Source: Escherichia coli (GTDB lineage Bacteria; Pseudomonadota; Gammaproteobacteria; Enterobacterales; Enterobacteriaceae). From it: a stretch of DNA of 64,000 nt. Position numbers and translations under genes: made by a program. Under the pieces are notes generated by a model. The model saw nothing but the letters and a program-made list of their open reading frames with translations. It had not been told where the DNA came from and did not search any database. Numbering within the stretch: position 1 is the first letter of the stretch; each line of letters starts with the position of its first letter. The stretch is from NCBI RefSeq assembly GCF_013122565.1, contig NZ_CP053258.1, one strand, 5' to 3'. Of the stretch, positions 44,073-50,634 are shown in pieces.

Positions 44073-44474
44073 TTAGTGTGAATATTCTTCTGTAATTTCA
44101 GCCAGATCCAATGCGTTATCTACCAGCGAGGTTATCTCAAGCAGGATATCTTCAAGAGAAGATTTAAGCGATAACGCACCGAAAACAATGTAATACTCTT
44201 CTTGTTGTACGCTGGAGATTCCTACCGATGACAACGGCATCATCTTCTGATTTCTTAATAAGAAGGTATTAAATTCATCTGGATTGCTGATACTACTTAC
44301 CGGACAAATAAAGGTTTCGATAATCATTTGGCGGGAAGTAAAAAGAATATTGATTTGCAAATCGCCATAATCATTCATTTTAATAATTAATGCGTTCTCG
44401 CTATTTGTTACATCAATATTTTGTTCATGTTCAGTTTGCAGCGCCGTCGCCAGCGCCAACGGATTCCATGTCAT
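44073..44474 (-). CDS. yjfI: DUF2170-family protein YjfI
   Basis: 133 aa MTWNPLALATALQTEHEQNIDVTNSENALIIKMNDYGDLQ... Confidence 0.82.
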   Translation of the reverse strand: MTWNPLALATALQTEHEQNIDVTNSENALIIKMNDYGDLQINILFTSRQMIIETFICPVSSISNPDEFNTFLLRNQKMMPLSSVGISSVQQEEYYIVFGALSLKSSLEDILLEITSLVDNALDLAEITEEYSH

Positions 44475-44553
44475 ATATTATTCCATATAGATTAAGTTTA
44501 AATATTAATAAAATGAATATTTGCAGTACATAATTATCTTACCAGCTATAGAC

Positions 44554-44580
44554 AAAAAAAAACCATCCAAATCTGGATGG
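44554..44580 (-). terminator. Intrinsic terminator closing the accessory catabolic operon ahead of yjfI
   Basis: Minus strand reads hairpin ccatccagatttggatgg followed by a T-run of 9. Confidence 0.75.
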
Positions 44581-44664
44581 CTATTAAGAAGAACCAAAAA
44601 TTTAACGCTATGCATACGATAAAAAATGCGCCAGTCTACATACACTGACGCTAATGATTAGTCA

Positions 44665-46266
44665 CTACAAGTCTAACGACCGCTTCCACAACATAAAATC
44701 AAACTGTTCGAGTTTGTCTGCCTTCACGACGTAGTCCTTACTGGCAGTTTCAATAACTTTTTCAAATAATTCTCTACTCACATCTTCCAGCGGAGTGCCG
44801 TCAATCACTGGGCCACAGTCGAAATCAATCATGTCAGACAATCGTCTGGCAATCGTGCTGTTGGTGGATATTTTTAACACCGGAACAATCGGGTTACCGG
44901 TGGGCGTACCAAGACCCGTCGAGAAGATAACCACATTACATCCTGCTGCTACCAATCCGGTTACCGCGTCCACGTCATTGCCCGGAGTACACACCAACGA
45001 TAATCCACTATCGGGCATAGGCTCAGCGTAATCGCATACACTCACAATTGGCGCTCGCCCGCCTTTTTTCGCTGCTCCGGTAGATTTTATTGCGTCAGTA
45101 ATCAACCCATCCGCGATGTTGCCAAAACTTGGGTTATCCGCAATGGTGGTATCGAAAAAGTTCGCTGTCTTTTCGTAGCCTTGCATTAGATTGAGGAACT
45201 TTTTTTTATCCTCAAGATTAATACAACGCTTAACCATATCACCTTCTGCCCCACATAATTCTGGAAATTCTGCTAACCCGGAAGCGCCACCAAGCGTTGT
45301 CAACCAGTCAGAAACCAGCCCCATTGCAGGGTTGCCGGAGATACCAGAAAAACCATCGGAACCACCACACTTCATCCCCACTTTGAGACAGGAAAGAGGG
45401 ACCTCTACTCTTTCTGTCGGCTTCACCGCTTTCATTGCCGCGAAAGTCTGCTGTAAAGCGGTCTGCATCATCCGCTCTTCGCTGTCCCACTCCTGTTGGA
45501 GAAAGTAGAGCGCAGGTTTATCAAATTCAGGATTACGTCTCGCCAGCGCATCCTTAAACATTTTCTGCTGCGCTTTTTCACATCCTAAACTGAATACCGT
45601 CATACCGATTACATTCGGATGGTCAGCATAAGCAGCTAATACATCGCACATAGTTTCACAGTCTGAAGTTGCACCACCACAACCACTGGTGACCGTAATA
45701 CAGCGAACACCTTCAATATGCGGAAACATTCTCGCGGTTTCGATCAGTTCATCGCTACCGGACGTCAGATTAAGAGCAAACTTTTTCAGTGAGTTATTGG
45801 TATAACCCAAAGCATCATTCAAAGCATTGGTTAACTTACTGACATTACGGTTCTCGCAAAATACCAATGGAAAGACTAACCAGTAACTGGCAGTACCCAC
45901 TCTGCCATCGTCACGGACATAACCTTTAAAAGTGCGGGTGCTCCAGTCAGAGACATCCGGTGCCTGCCAGTGGTAGGGTTCAACATCCTCCAGTGTGACA
46001 GGAGCTGCATAGTGGCGAATATTATCAACGGTAATCGCTTCTCCCTTAACGATGGGACGCGTGGCCTTGCCAACTGGCGTACCGTACATCGAAACAATGC
46101 CATCCAGAGGAATATCTTGCGTCGCAAACTTATGTTTAGCCTTAACATCAGTTACTAACGTTATGTTGTCGTCATCCCACGAGTACGATTCTCCAGCGTG
46201 CAGGTCTTTCAACGCGACAATGAGATTATCGTTACTGTCGATACGTAATATTTTTTGCATAATCAT
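44665..46266 (-). CDS. UxaA/GarD-family sugar-acid dehydratase (altronate/galactarate dehydratase-like, SAF N-terminal domain)
   Basis: 533 aa; Cys-rich motifs (ITVTSGCGG, CGGSDGFSGISGNP) typical of the family; probable true start at second ATG (46260). Confidence 0.78.
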   Translation of the reverse strand: MIMQKILRIDSNDNLIVALKDLHAGESYSWDDDNITLVTDVKAKHKFATQDIPLDGIVSMYGTPVGKATRPIVKGEAITVDNIRHYAAPVTLEDVEPYHWQAPDVSDWSTRTFKGYVRDDGRVGTASYWLVFPLVFCENRNVSKLTNALNDALGYTNNSLKKFALNLTSGSDELIETARMFPHIEGVRCITVTSGCGGATSDCETMCDVLAAYADHPNVIGMTVFSLGCEKAQQKMFKDALARRNPEFDKPALYFLQQEWDSEERMMQTALQQTFAAMKAVKPTERVEVPLSCLKVGMKCGGSDGFSGISGNPAMGLVSDWLTTLGGASGLAEFPELCGAEGDMVKRCINLEDKKKFLNLMQGYEKTANFFDTTIADNPSFGNIADGLITDAIKSTGAAKKGGRAPIVSVCDYAEPMPDSGLSLVCTPGNDVDAVTGLVAAGCNVVIFSTGLGTPTGNPIVPVLKISTNSTIARRLSDMIDFDCGPVIDGTPLEDVSRELFEKVIETASKDYVVKADKLEQFDFMLWKRSLDL

Positions 46267-46293
46267 ATTCTTCCAGTCAGATGTTCAATCTTA

Positions 46294-47595
46294 TTAACTG
46301 TATGCTTTTGCTGCCTGTTGGCTCTTTTGCAGCAATCCAATCAATAATGCGCAGCCGATGGTAATTACAGACAACGCCATCAATCCGGCGATGCTGCTAT
46401 CCATTGCCCGATCAACCTCAACACGGATAAGAGGAGCAAGGAACGAGCAGAAAGCGCCCATCGTGGTGCAAAAACCGATCCCCGCAGCCAGTGCCGGACC
46501 AGTAAGAAGTTGTGGAGGGAAAGTCCAGAATATTGGCTGTACTGAGAGGAAACCAACCGCACTTAAACAAAGTGCACCAATCGCCACAACAGGCCCCGCA
46601 AATGCGGAAAGGGCAAGGCCGACAGCAGCAGCCAACATACACATAACCGAAATGGCCACACGCTGGGAAGGATTGCGGTCAGCAATTCGCGGAATGTAAT
46701 AGACGCCAAAAGCAGAGCACGCCCATGGTATTGCCGCGACTAATGACTGCTTAAAGCCAAGGCTTTCTCCCATCAGCGATGCAACCTGTGACGGAAGGAA
46801 AAACATTAAACCATATACTGATATCTGGATGGTGCCGTAGATTAATGCCAGATGCCAAACTTTGGCATTTTTCAATGCTGAAATCACTGAACTGGTTTCT
46901 GTTTTCTGTCGTTCAGATTCCAGTTGCTTATTCAAAGCGTCTTTTTCTTCCTGGGTAAGAAATCGCGCTTTCGTCGGATTATCATCAAGGTAGAACCAGG
47001 CAAAGATACCAAGCACTAATGCCGGCAATCCCTCAATGACAAACATCCAGAACCATCCTGGACGTCCCATCCAGCCATGTAGTTCAAGTAAAGCTCCCGA
47101 TATTGGCGAACCGAGCGTTAACGCCAGCGGCACCCCCAACACAAATATTCCCACGACCGATCCGCGAACCTTGTTAGGAAAATAAATGGATGCGAGCAGT
47201 AAAATTCCGGGATAGAACCCCGCCTCGCCCAGCCCTAACAGAAAGCGCAAAATAATAAATTGCGTTTCACTGGTGACAAATCCCGTCATTGCCGAGAGAA
47301 GGCCCCAAATTGCAGTTGTAATACTTAACCACTTTTGTGCGCCGATTTTATTGAGGATCAGGTTAGCTGGAATGCCGAAAAGTGCATAGGCAGCGAAAAA
47401 TATTCCTGCACCGAGAGCGAATGCCGACTCTGATAATCCAATATCCAGTTTCATTGCATCTTTGGCAAAGCCAACATTTACCCGATCAATAAAGGCAACA
47501 AAATACATTATGAACATTAAGGGTACTAAACGTTTCCACGATTTTTGAATTGCGGAATTCAACAGCGGATTATCGTATTGGGTTATATTAGCCAT
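46294..47595 (-). CDS. MFS transporter, ACS family (sugar-acid/anion permease)
   Basis: 433 aa; N-terminal FIDRVNVGFA motif, 12-TM pattern; AAGGA RBS. Confidence 0.85.
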   Translation of the reverse strand: MANITQYDNPLLNSAIQKSWKRLVPLMFIMYFVAFIDRVNVGFAKDAMKLDIGLSESAFALGAGIFFAAYALFGIPANLILNKIGAQKWLSITTAIWGLLSAMTGFVTSETQFIILRFLLGLGEAGFYPGILLLASIYFPNKVRGSVVGIFVLGVPLALTLGSPISGALLELHGWMGRPGWFWMFVIEGLPALVLGIFAWFYLDDNPTKARFLTQEEKDALNKQLESERQKTETSSVISALKNAKVWHLALIYGTIQISVYGLMFFLPSQVASLMGESLGFKQSLVAAIPWACSAFGVYYIPRIADRNPSQRVAISVMCMLAAAVGLALSAFAGPVVAIGALCLSAVGFLSVQPIFWTFPPQLLTGPALAAGIGFCTTMGAFCSFLAPLIRVEVDRAMDSSIAGLMALSVITIGCALLIGLLQKSQQAAKAYS

Positions 47596-47645
47596 AAATA
47601 AATCCTTAGTTCTGTTGGTAAGATATTCTATTTATAGGTTTTATA

Positions 47646-48539
47646 TTATTTATAATAATCGGTGACAGATAAAATTTCCTGCAATCTCCGGGATTGAATA
47701 TCATCAAGTATATTAAATGGTGAAGAACACCGCTCTGATTGAATAACCCCCTTTAACTGAAGGGCTTTTTTGAAAGTGGGAATAAAAGGAGAATTCACGC
47801 TGTAAACGGCCATTAGTTGATCGACTATCTGCTGATGCTGCGCGACTGCAAGTAAATCGTCATTCGTGAATGCTTGCATCCAGGAGGCAAAAAATTCAGG
47901 GACAATATTGGATAAACCACCAATACAGCCATCTCCACCAGATAGTATGTTGTGGGCAAAATTATTGTCATATCCTGCATACACTTCAAAATGAGGGATA
48001 TTTTTCTTTACGGTATTGATAACCTGCGCAGTATGGAAAGCATCAGGGACGGTATCTTTCATACCAATAATATTGGGATATTTATCTGCCAGTCGTAAAC
48101 AAATCTCTGGTGATACGCTGTACCCGGTTCTCTCCGGGAAGTTATAAATAAAAATATGAGCCGGGGTTTGGCTTGCAATCGTACTGTAGAAATCAAAAAT
48201 AGCTTCATCATCCAGAGGGAAATAATAAGGACTGATGATCATCACACCATCCAATCCTTGCTCCCAGGCGTAATTGGCCAGTGATATTGATTCATTGACG
48301 TCCATGCGACTGGCTCCGGCATAAACCTTCATATCGCCTCGGGAAAACTCACTACAGGTTTTAATCATTTGGCGGGCGTTTTCCATATTAAGAGAAAAAA
48401 ACTCACCAGTACTGCCCATCACAACAAACCCGGACACGTGATTTTTAATAAAATCATAAACCTGAGTGTTTTGCTCAGGATCGATTCGCCCTTGTTCATC
48501 AAATATGGTGACAACGGGGGTTATGTAACGACTTTTCAT
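47646..48539 (-). CDS. Dihydrodipicolinate synthase-family (class I) aldolase, probable 2-keto-3-deoxy sugar-acid aldolase
   Basis: 297 aa; N-terminal TPVVTIFDEQGRID and GSTGE motif; GAGGTAGG RBS. Confidence 0.8.
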   Translation of the reverse strand: MKSRYITPVVTIFDEQGRIDPEQNTQVYDFIKNHVSGFVVMGSTGEFFSLNMENARQMIKTCSEFSRGDMKVYAGASRMDVNESISLANYAWEQGLDGVMIISPYYFPLDDEAIFDFYSTIASQTPAHIFIYNFPERTGYSVSPEICLRLADKYPNIIGMKDTVPDAFHTAQVINTVKKNIPHFEVYAGYDNNFAHNILSGGDGCIGGLSNIVPEFFASWMQAFTNDDLLAVAQHQQIVDQLMAVYSVNSPFIPTFKKALQLKGVIQSERCSSPFNILDDIQSRRLQEILSVTDYYK

Positions 48540-48867
48540 GCCTACCTCATCATAGTTTTATTGTTCATATATACAAACAACGTTTTTAAATACAAACTAA
48601 AATGAGTATACCCAACCTCAGAAATGAGTCAAATTTAGCCAATCACAGAAGTGATACAGCTAAGCTATTGATATATTTGGAGTAATTATGTCGGAGACCT
48701 GCATAAAAAACAATCGCAGTTCTTTTTTTATCCGTTTTATGACCAGTATCACGCTAAAAAAGGACTGATGGGCTCAACAGCAGTCAAGGAACGCGAGGGG
48801 GTTAATTTACTTGAATTATAATTCTCCCTAGAATGGTGCATTACTCATGGTAAGGGAAATAGTCATT

Positions 48868-49647
48868 ATGGAACATAAGCCTACCATCCGGGTGTTAGAG
48901 ATACTGGAAGCACTGGCAGCGGAGAATCAGGGTGTTTCATTAACTCACCTTTCGGAAAAAACAGGCATCCTGAAAGGAACGATTTTTCCCATCCTCAAAA
49001 CGCTGGTTGAACAGCGGTACATCAGTTATGACGCTAATACCCAGCTTTATAATCTGGGGATCTCCTGCTCGATTCTGTCCCGTGCTTTCCTCGACAGATC
49101 GTACTGGTTAAAAATGGTTTACAAAGAGATGAACAACATTGTCAAAGAGTGCAATGAAGTTTGTCAGATGGGGATCCTGGACGGTGCAGATGTTTTATAT
49201 ATCAATAAGGTGCAGGCGGCACAAACCGTACAACTGGTTTCACATATTGGGACTCGTCTGCCTGCTATCTATTCTGCGCTGGGAAAAGCCATTATCTGTG
49301 AATACAGTGATCAACAAATTCGGCAACTCTACCCTGACGGTTTTGTTCCCATGACATCGTATAGCGTTACGACCCTGGAACAATTGCGCCAACAACTTGA
49401 GGATGCCAGAGTAAATGGCTATGCATTTGATAACAGGGAAATCAATGAGGAGACGGTATGTTATGCTGTTGCCTTAAAACAGCGAAATAAAACGCTTGCC
49501 GCCATCAGCATTTCAATACCCGTATTTCGTGCGACAAAAGAAAAAATTGCCGATGTCACGCGTATCCTGCTGAATGCACGTTCGCGTATTGAACAGGAAC
49601 TCAACACCTTACAGGATATCAATATCGGTATTGATTCCCACCATTAA
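48868..49647 (+). CDS. IclR-family transcriptional regulator
   Basis: N-terminal wHTH (RVLEILEALAAENQGVSLTHLSEKTGILKGTIFPIL) plus effector domain; start at ATG 48868 (alternative 48847). Confidence 0.85.
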   Translation: MEHKPTIRVLEILEALAAENQGVSLTHLSEKTGILKGTIFPILKTLVEQRYISYDANTQLYNLGISCSILSRAFLDRSYWLKMVYKEMNNIVKECNEVCQMGILDGADVLYINKVQAAQTVQLVSHIGTRLPAIYSALGKAIICEYSDQQIRQLYPDGFVPMTSYSVTTLEQLRQQLEDARVNGYAFDNREINEETVCYAVALKQRNKTLAAISISIPVFRATKEKIADVTRILLNARSRIEQELNTLQDINIGIDSHH

Positions 49648-49723
49648 GGGTATTTTCCATTCGAAGCCCGATACGTAAAAATTATCGGGCTAACAAAATA
49701 TCCATTGAATGGATAGCGATGAA

Positions 49724-50455
49724 CTAGCTGCGCTGGCGCACCGCTTCAAATAAGCAAATTCCGGTCGCAACCGAAACGTTCAGGGAAGAAACGCTTCCAG
49801 CCATCGGGATGCTGATCAACTCATCGCAATGTTCACGAGTCAGGCGACGCATACCTTCACCTTCCGCACCCATCACCAGCGCCAGGCGTCCGGTCATTTT
49901 GCTCTGATAGAGTGTATGATCCGCCTCGCCTGCCGTACCGACGATCCAGATATTCTCTTCCTGCAACATACGCATGGTGCGCGCAAGGTTAGTCACCCGA
50001 ATCAGCGGAACGTTTTCTGCCGCGCCGCAGGCTACTTTTTTCGCCGTGGCGTTGAGCTGTGCGGAGCGATCTTTCGGCACAATCACCGCATGAACGCCAG
50101 CGGCGTCCGCGCTACGCAGGCACGCGCCGAGGTTGTGCGGATCGGTTACACCGTCGAGGATCAGCAGGAACGGTTGATCGAGCGAAGCGATCAGATCCGG
50201 CAGATCGTTTTCCTGATACTGACGTCCTGGCTTCACACGGGCAATAATGCCCTGATGCACGGCACCGTCGCTTTTCTCGTCGAGATACTGACGGTTCGCC
50301 AACTGGATAACCACGCCCTGGGACTCAAGGGCGTGAATCAGCGGTAACAGACGTTTATCTTCACGGCCTTTTAAAATAAAGACTTCCTGAAAACGTTCAG
50401 GGGCGCGCTCCAGCAGGGCCTGCACTGCGTGGATGCCGTAAATCATTTCGCTCAT
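49724..50455 (-). CDS. rlmB: 23S rRNA (guanosine2251-2'-O)-methyltransferase RlmB
   Basis: 243 aa SpoU/TrmH-family MTase [36 protein letters not shown]. Confidence 0.92.
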
Positions 50456-50479: not shown

Positions 50480-50578
50480 GCCTGATGCACTACGTTTATC
50501 CGGCCTACATGATCTCTGCAATATATTGAATTTGCGTGATTATGTAGGCCGGATAAGGCGTTCACGCCGCATCCGGCA
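50480..50578. repeat. REP/BIME element (two inverted REP units)
   Basis: tgcctgatgcactacgtttatccggcctaca ... tgtaggccggataaggcgttcacgccgcatccggca. Confidence 0.85.
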
Positions 50579-50634
50579 TGAACAAAGCGCATTTTGTCAG
50601 CAATCTAACCCTCTTCTTTTAAAGAGGGTAATGA

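Follow-up and report, generated by a model that had tools for sequence, protein, structure and literature searches.

The fuc locus of Campylobacter jejuni encodes the IclR-family protein FucR, the DapA-like protein Cj0481, the UxaA-type proteins Cj0482/3 and the MFS transporter Cj0484, and degrades L-fucose and D-arabinose via L-fuconate (PMC6946681, PMC12566272). FucR acts as a repressor, with binding upstream of cj0481, the same enzymes serve L-fucose as well as D-arabinose, and L-fuconate accumulates (PMC6946681, PMC12566272). The characterised enzymes of the UxaA/GarD superfamily act on substrates that share the C2-C4 configuration of D-arabinonate, namely D-altronate, D-arabinonate, L-fuconate and L-galactonate (PMC6336799). 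Here, we describe four genes located between yjfI and rlmB in a 64,000-nucleotide stretch of the Escherichia coli contig NZ_CP053258.1 (assembly GCF_013122565.1), which is referred to below as the window. These genes constitute a horizontally acquired, self-contained catabolic cassette, and sequence comparisons make L-fuconate, with or without D-arabinonate, its probable substrate. As an uncharacterised instance, the cassette falls into a pathway type that is already known and brings in no new mechanism or enzyme family. It comprises the following genes:

44665-46260, minus strand: UxaA/GarD-superfamily sugar-acid dehydratase, 531 amino acids (RefSeq start; mechanical open reading frame from 46266)
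46294-47595, minus strand: putative ACS-type MFS anion:H+ symporter, 433 amino acids
47646-48539, minus strand: DHDPS/NAL-family class I aldolase, 297 amino acids
48868-49647, plus strand: IclR-family transcriptional regulator, 259 amino acids (mechanical open reading frame from 48847)

In the proposed scheme, the IclR protein would bind a palindrome downstream of the operon promoter and is predicted to act as a repressor, released when a pathway intermediate, probably the 2-keto-3-deoxy acid, appears. The RhmT-like MFS symporter is predicted to import an aldonate, most probably L-fuconate (6-deoxy-L-galactonate) and perhaps D-arabinonate too. The dehydratase, predicted to be an Fe-dependent enzyme of the UxaA type, would convert this aldonate into 2-keto-3-deoxy-L-fuconate (or 2-keto-3-deoxy-D-pentonate), and the DHDPS-family class I aldolase is predicted to cleave the 2-keto-3-deoxy acid into pyruvate and L-lactaldehyde (or glycolaldehyde). 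Two core enzymes would then take over the aldehyde, AldA to oxidise it or FucO to reduce it. Read in this way, the cassette would correspond to the lower half of the non-phosphorylative L-fucose pathway and serve to scavenge the acid, and its carriers could use oxidised fucose released by other microbes or by the host. We infer the identity of the substrate, the effector, the direction of regulation and the ecological role from these comparisons.

The order of uptake, dehydration and aldol cleavage had already been suggested in the original prediction, which was made from the DNA letters of the window, and it remains the best-supported logic. The same prediction regarded the route as unclear because no kinase or oxidoreductase is present. 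Both are indeed missing, but this is not a gap, because a dehydratase and a class I aldolase make up a complete non-phosphorylative route, with yjhIHG / yagEF and rhmRDTA of E. coli and the C. jejuni fucose locus as precedents, and the enzymes required for the aldehyde are core functions, with fucO present in 5425/5426 and aldA in 5417/5426 E. coli genomes.

Position, distribution and acquisition of the island

Base-by-base alignment to the K-12 locus gave an island of 5,139 bp (approximately 44583-49721), which stands in place of about 16 bp of the yjfI-rlmB spacer. In K-12, the gap between these two genes is only 126 bp. The yjfI side still carries the left 108 bp of the K-12 spacer, including the rlmB terminator hairpin at 44561-44582, and on the rlmB side only 2 nucleotides past the rlmB stop codon are common to K-12. 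The four open reading frames between yjfI and rlmB are all intact and full length against their homologues, with the IclR gene divergent from an aldolase-MFS-dehydratase operon. The island has a foreign composition, with a GC content of 44.1% and third-position GC (GC3) values of 0.39-0.47, compared to 0.60-0.62 in rlmB and rnr. The island borders showed no direct repeats, integrase or transposase, and an Rfam scan revealed no RNA family inside the island.

The island is present in 519 of the 5426 complete E. coli genomes, in 512 of them at full length, and every copy is a single copy with at least 99.3% identity located at the yjfI-rlmB locus. It is absent from K-12 and EDL933, which bears out the suggestion in the original prediction that the genes are accessory and not part of the K-12 core. 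Our literature search, which covered the yjfI-rlmB locus, the combination of gene families and the four RefSeq WP accessions, returned no publication on the island, and no paper characterising the cluster was found. In the PLSDB database the island occurs on the plasmid-labelled records AP026530.1 / NZ_CP128951.1 (655 kb) and NZ_CP134663.1 (4.9 Mb), which are predicted to be non-mobilizable. These are probably chromosome fragments or mislabelled records and not true plasmids; the plasmid search placed the island only on chromosome-sized or chromid-like 'plasmid' records and gave no evidence for a plasmid vehicle.

A genome-context search showed that Leminorella, Morganella, Klebsiella oxytoca, Klebsiella sp. 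and Commensalibacter also carry this IclR / aldolase-MFS-dehydratase unit, at chromosomal positions unrelated to that in E. coli. The cassette proteins share 82-90% identity with those of E. coli in Leminorella, 71-87% in Morganella and 57-81% in K. oxytoca and Klebsiella sp. Since the four-gene unit recurs at unrelated loci in other taxa, the cassette behaves as an autonomous, transferable functional module. The nearest DNA match to the island, from Leminorella, is just 74% identical, indicating that the donor has not been sampled. In Morganella, CBASS-like defence genes encoding a SMODS/DncV-like nucleotidyltransferase and ThiF, JAB and SAVED proteins are located about 1 kb upstream of the cassette (L003:1-3559), suggesting a variable region of that chromosome as its location.

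Among the E. coli carriers (genomes H42-H44, H54 and H90), some island copies are interrupted by IS2 and/or IS5 inside or beside the MFS gene. Seven genomes carry island fragments only; that of TUM9757 corresponds to the final 203 bp of the segment used as query, which fall in iclR. Such broken and partial copies indicate occasional decay or deletion of the island, and they are what could be cited for the view that it is a decaying, non-functional remnant of horizontal transfer. We consider this view very improbable, given that the four open reading frames are full length, that 512 genomes hold the whole unit at 99.3% identity or above, and that catalytic residues, promoter and operator are conserved across genera.

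Enzymes, transporter and predicted substrate

The four family assignments of the original prediction were correct: the dehydratase carries SAF and GD_AH domains, the aldolase belongs to PF00701, the transporter matches the ACS-type MFS model TIGR00893, below its subfamily cutoff, and the regulator matches IclR models. In the dehydratase, the SAF (PF08666, 2.2e-10), GD_AH_second (PF04295, 1.6e-30) and GD_AH_C (PF20629, 2.8e-83) domains together give the architecture of the UxaA/GarD superfamily. Its residues C135, C194, C227 and C298 have cysteine counterparts in the alignment with K-12 UxaA and are invariant in 13 homologues. Four conserved cysteines of C785_RS13685 (C134, C173, C208 and C276) were proposed as iron ligands (PMC6336799), and the island cysteines correspond to this numbering as judged from motif context only. 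The protein is 34% identical to K-12 UxaA, 29% to GarD and 57% to a Massilia protein flanked by uxaC and uxaB. Its sole NCBIfam match is to galactarate dehydratase (TIGR03248, 220.1 bits against a cutoff of 730.85) and its best full-length match in the PDB is GarD (6u7l). Two specific assignments were rejected: GarD, by the TIGR03248 score and the 29% identity, and an E. coli-type UxaA of the hexuronate pathway, by the 34% identity and the lack of uxaB or uxaC in or near the island.

The match to the galactarate dehydratase model and to the GarD structure would fit an aldarate route, in which the UxaA/GarD protein is a galactarate dehydratase and the DHDPS protein, weakly matched by KdgD models, is a KdgD-type 5-dehydro-4-deoxyglucarate dehydratase/decarboxylase. 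This route is extremely unlikely. The galactarate dehydratase score lies far below its cutoff, the KdgD models give 85-89 bits against cutoffs of 278 and 374 with YagE-type aldolases much closer, the transporter shares 24% identity with GarP, and the cluster contains no alpha-ketoglutarate-semialdehyde dehydrogenase.

The dehydratase was placed using a scan of 100,044 species genomes combined with gene-context analysis and a neighbour-joining tree. It falls into a 'long UxaA' family, in which the members from Betaproteobacteria (53-58% identity) have their genes between uxaC and uxaB; several of these loci continue with an MFS gene, a GH28 polygalacturonase gene and kdgK. These uxaC/uxaB-linked proteins are genuine D-altronate dehydratases, and many Bacteroidota members of the family (45-48% identity) are likewise linked to uxaB/uxaC. 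The clade of the cassette dehydratase is sister to the betaproteobacterial uxaC/uxaB-linked clade, and its members with a visible context all stand beside a DHDPS-family gene and none beside uxaB or uxaC. In Budvicia aquatica (L103:5560-9548), a 62%-identical dehydratase is encoded with a different ACS-type MFS protein (25%) and an AraC-family regulator, with no aldolase nearby, representing a third context for the cassette dehydratase clade.

This phylogenetic position bears on an alternative with the same mechanism, in which the substrate would be L-galactonate or D-altronate, and 2-keto-3-deoxy-L-galactonate or 2-keto-3-deoxygluconate (KDG) would be cleaved to pyruvate and L- or D-glyceraldehyde. 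DHDPS-family aldolases acting on KDG and on 2-keto-3-deoxy-L-galactonate are known, and the match of the island aldolase to YagE agrees with such an activity. The cassette clade is sister to the altronate dehydratases flanked by uxaC/uxaB and nested in the family they dominate, and UxaA-family L-galactonate dehydratases were reported by Watanabe 2019 (PMC6336799). On the other side, such a cassette would be redundant in E. coli, which already has UxaA, KdgK and Eda for D-altronate and LgoT and LgoD for L-galactonate; the transporter, 50% identical to RhmT, reaches just 27% with LgoT and 23% with ExuT; and the clusters of the relatives recruit FucO and FucP, not genes handling glyceraldehyde or glycerate. 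On balance, we regard L-galactonate or D-altronate as an unlikely substrate, with L-fuconate preferred.

The aldolase was assigned to PF00701 through a precomputed result for a 99%-identical protein (P0121). Its closest solved relative is E. coli YagE, a 2-keto-3-deoxy-pentonate/galactonate aldolase (4.6e-48), and it shares 32% identity with YjhH. In an alignment with YjhH and relatives it keeps the GSTGEF motif, the catalytic Tyr of YNFP and the Schiff-base Lys in GMKDT. DapA (165.5 bits against a cutoff of 206.15), NanA (149.8 against 281) and KdgD (85.4 against 373.95) were rejected as assignments. Relatives of this protein at 46-54% identity are found in clusters with FucO or FucP. The island aldolase has the sequence YNFPERTG; in this Y-N-F-P-x-R-T-G motif the cassette aldolases and the Clostridium, Fusobacterium and Orbus relatives have an Arg, and YjhH has a Leu. 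We take R138 of DapA to be the Arg at the equivalent position.

The Arg of this motif, compared with the Leu of YjhH, could mean that the aldolase accepts a different distal substrate group, and it is one of the points in favour of another acid altogether, such as a 6-deoxy, 5-deoxy or otherwise modified aldonate from host or diet, with the link to fucose reflecting nothing but a shared enzyme scaffold. All four proteins also score below every curated equivalog cutoff, and shifts of function at high identity are documented in the UxaA/GarD superfamily. We nevertheless consider a different acid improbable, as three independent contexts of relatives (Desulfovibrio, Orbus and Fusobacterium/Clostridium, described below) converge on fucose/lactaldehyde genes.

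With TIGR00893 the transporter scores 254.7 bits and does not reach the subfamily cutoff of 395. It shares 50% identity across 98% of its length with YfaV/RhmT of K-12, which belongs to the operon for the 6-deoxyhexonate L-rhamnonate, compared with only 21-27% for LgoT (27%), GarP (24%), ExuT (23%) and DgoT. Hexuronates and hexarates, which the original prediction had listed for growth tests, are unlikely substrates in view of these identities and of the GarD and KdgD scores far under their cutoffs. The cassette has an RhmT-like acid transporter in place of a FucP and is without a dehydrogenase and a lactonase, so that uptake of the acid itself is the natural reading.

The gene contexts of more distant relatives point to L-fuconate in particular. 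A Desulfovibrio metagenome-assembled genome has the order IclR (45% identity) / aldolase (54%), MFS, dehydratase (61%), amidohydrolase, EIIC-GAT, aldo/keto reductase and enolase-type enzyme. The MFS protein of this cluster is FucP according to the equivalog TIGR00885 (310 bits against a cutoff of 280.4). For the amidohydrolase, the sole NCBIfam match is L-fucono-1,5-lactonase (189 bits, below the cutoff of 400) and the sole PDB match is 4DLF, which we take to be the L-fucono-1,5-lactonase of Burkholderia multivorans. On these matches, the Desulfovibrio cluster is predicted to encode the full non-phosphorylative L-fucose pathway, with orthologues of the island aldolase and dehydratase at its core. 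Orbus hercynius shows the order IclR, MFS (71%), dehydratase (63%), a DHDPS aldolase from a different lineage (34%) and FucO, the last of which scores 704 bits with NF007911 (cutoff 537) and is 71% identical to FucO of K-12. In Fusobacterium and Clostridium the order is IclR (38-41%) / KdgT, split UxaA, FAH hydrolase and aldolase (46-48%); the Fusobacterium cluster contains a bona fide FucO (672 bits against 537), and that of Clostridium a related iron-type alcohol dehydrogenase. Through these contexts, the half of the cassette made up of MFS and dehydratase and the half made up of aldolase and IclR are each tied independently to lactaldehyde/fucose genes.

Several observations weigh against L-fuconate. 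The E. coli-type cassette has no FucO, FucP or lactonase, and the fucose link comes from relatives at 54-71% identity; in every carrier organism the predicted substrate derives from comparative genomics. A fucose permease, an L-fucose 1-dehydrogenase and a fuconolactonase, as expected for a complete non-phosphorylative L-fucose pathway, are not among the four island genes. The closest context-defined relatives of the dehydratase, at 53-58% identity, are the D-altronate dehydratases flanked by uxaC/uxaB, and in the UxaA/GarD superfamily specificity may change even at 67% identity (PMC6336799). The substrate of YfaV/RhmT was itself assigned from operon context only, and the island was set beside Cj0480c-Cj0484 of C. 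jejuni by family and layout alone. In addition, an enolase-superfamily gene adjoins the cassette in Leminorella (L004:10450-11550) and in the Desulfovibrio genome (L097:15428-16528), and these two enolase-type proteins are 76% identical to each other. Their best PDB match is 3,6-anhydro-alpha-L-galactonate cycloisomerase (2.4e-66), whose product is 2-keto-3-deoxy-L-galactonate, and their best NCBIfam match is L-talarate/galactarate dehydratase, below cutoff. This neighbour is missing from the E. coli island; it gives a hint of hexonates in the L-galacto configuration, as opposed to a 6-deoxy acid, and adds to the case for L-galactonate.

If L-fuconate is the substrate, a cross-feeding role can tentatively be proposed, although we hold it with less confidence than the substrate itself. 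E. coli strains with the island, and likewise Morganella, Providencia, Leminorella and some Klebsiella, may cross-feed on L-fuconate through an acid-only cassette that bypasses fucPIKA, and would thereby occupy a previously unrecognised nutrient niche. The L-fuconate would be oxidised fucose supplied by the host or by organisms like C. jejuni that degrade mucin-derived fucose, and the L-fuconate accumulated by C. jejuni is a plausible environmental source for carriers. In that case, no transporter for L-fuconate would have been identified before the RhmT-like protein, and about 10% of E. coli and several opportunistic Enterobacterales would use an oxidised deoxy-sugar acid that K-12 cannot, a small and concrete case in which metabolic niches of the gut or urinary tract are partitioned at the level of strains. 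Functions would also be provided for four genes widely annotated as UxaA family hydrolase, DHDPS family protein, MFS transporter and IclR regulator, and the lower half of the non-phosphorylative fucose route would be seen to circulate as an autonomous acid-scavenging module.

Regulation, hairpins and flanking genes

The regulator gave full-length matches to the NCBIfam models of BhcR, KdgR, PcaR and IclR, each below cutoff, and its orthologues (57-85% identity) contain the HTH_IclR (PF09339) and IclR_C (PF01614) domains. The divergent intergenic region was aligned from five taxa (E. coli, Leminorella, Morganella and two Klebsiella), with a mean identity of 57%. The regulatory sites, hairpins and flanking genes are as follows:

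48561-48580, no strand assigned: putative IclR operator, imperfect palindrome TTGTTCATATATACAAACAA / GTTTGTATATATGAACAA (inverted-repeat search)
48605-48632, minus strand: sigma-70-like operon promoter, TTGACT, 16-nucleotide spacer, TATACT (scan, 10/12 matches)
48806-48834, plus strand: iclR promoter-like site, TTTACT, 17-nucleotide spacer, TAGAAT (scan, 9/12 matches)
44561-44582, minus strand: intrinsic terminator of rlmB, ancestral, with CCATCCAGATTTGGATGG and then a T run (terminator scan; identical in K-12)
44628-44651, minus strand: terminator-like hairpin of the cassette itself with a U-tract, tail ATTTTTTATC (terminator scan, 8 pairs, 5 of them GC)
49665-49691, no strand assigned: island-borne hairpin with a 9-bp stem AGCCCGATA, a 9-nucleotide loop and TATCGGGCT, between the convergent iclR and rlmB stops
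44073-44474, minus strand: yjfI flank
49724-50455, minus strand: rlmB flank (NF008386, 490 bits against a cutoff of 366)

In the operon promoter, ATTTGACT and the -10 hexamer are conserved across the five genera or species. The palindrome lies between this promoter and the start codon of the aldolase and is nearly invariant in the five-taxon alignment. Both hexamers of the iclR promoter-like site are conserved in E. coli, Leminorella and Morganella (alignment columns 33-65). This arrangement of promoter and palindrome is that expected if an IclR repressor acts at an operator that overlaps the transcription start of the operon, where the regulator would bind and repress.

The original prediction described a strong terminator closing the operon before yjfI. 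Such a terminator exists, but it is the native terminator of rlmB and not a part of the cassette; in the window it now lies downstream of the cassette operon, on the yjfI side, with a folding energy of -12.3 kcal/mol (z -2.5). The cassette has its own candidate in the hairpin at 44628-44651, which is located 14 nucleotides past the dehydratase stop codon and is also present in the minimum free energy fold. Hairpins had been predicted on both sides of the island and were found there, the one at 44628-44651 with a U-tract and that at 49665-49691 without. The 76-nucleotide region around the latter folds with -20.6 kcal/mol (minus strand, z -2.7) and -22.1 kcal/mol (plus strand, z -3.3), and a function in termination is uncertain because it has no U-tract. 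Outside the island, the rlmB-rnr spacer (50501-50583) showed sub-threshold Rfam matches to naRNA4 (38.2 against 59.5 bits) and ES036 (30.6 against 37.6), which are probably REP-type repeats.

Comparison with known sugar-acid systems

The cassette contains the same four families as the C. jejuni locus cj0480c-cj0490 ('route 1'), with an IclR regulator divergent from an operon that starts with a DHDPS-family aldolase. In this non-phosphorylative route, Cj0481 serves as the L-2-keto-3-deoxyfuconate (L-KDF) aldolase and Cj0482/3 as a UxaA-type L-fuconate dehydratase. In both systems, an aldonate would be converted into a 2-keto-3-deoxy acid and further into pyruvate and lactaldehyde or glycolaldehyde; the two were likened by families and layout. 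In contrast to C. jejuni, the E. coli cassette has no FucP, FucX dehydrogenase, lactonase, mutarotase or aldehyde dehydrogenase, and therefore cannot start from the sugar. The C. jejuni dehydratase is split (cj0482 and cj0483), whereas that of the island is a single 531-residue 'long UxaA' chain, which is about 32% identical to the split UxaA of the Fusobacterium/Clostridium kind. Gene order also differs, with aldolase-MFS-dehydratase in the island and aldolase-dehydratase-MFS in C. jejuni.

Two systems of E. coli itself resemble the cassette. The rhmRDTA operon of K-12 (yfaXWVU) likewise combines an IclR regulator, an MFS acid transporter, a dehydratase and an aldolase producing pyruvate and L-lactaldehyde, with a homologous transporter (50% identity) and a regulator of the same family (27%). 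Its dehydratase RhmD (enolase superfamily) and aldolase RhmA (HpcH family), however, come from unrelated families, and the stereochemistry of L-rhamnonate does not suit the UxaA/GarD preference. In the yjhIHG / yagEF genes for D-xylonate (Dahms-type), too, an acid-sugar dehydratase and a DHDPS-family aldolase yielding pyruvate and glycolaldehyde are combined with an IclR regulator. They differ in having an IlvD/Edd-family dehydratase and the GntP-type transporter YjhF, and identity is low, at 32% between the aldolases and 24% between the regulators.

The long-form UxaA proteins of Betaproteobacteria and Bacteroidota share with the island dehydratase the superfamily, the domain architecture and the conserved Cys ligands. 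The UxaA proteins of Massilia, Janthinobacterium and Silvimonas, encoded between uxaC and uxaB, are 56-58% identical to it and form the sister clade. Unlike the UxaA hexuronate pathway, the cassette is without uxaC, uxaB and kdgK, and pairs its dehydratase with a class I aldolase and an RhmT-like transporter.

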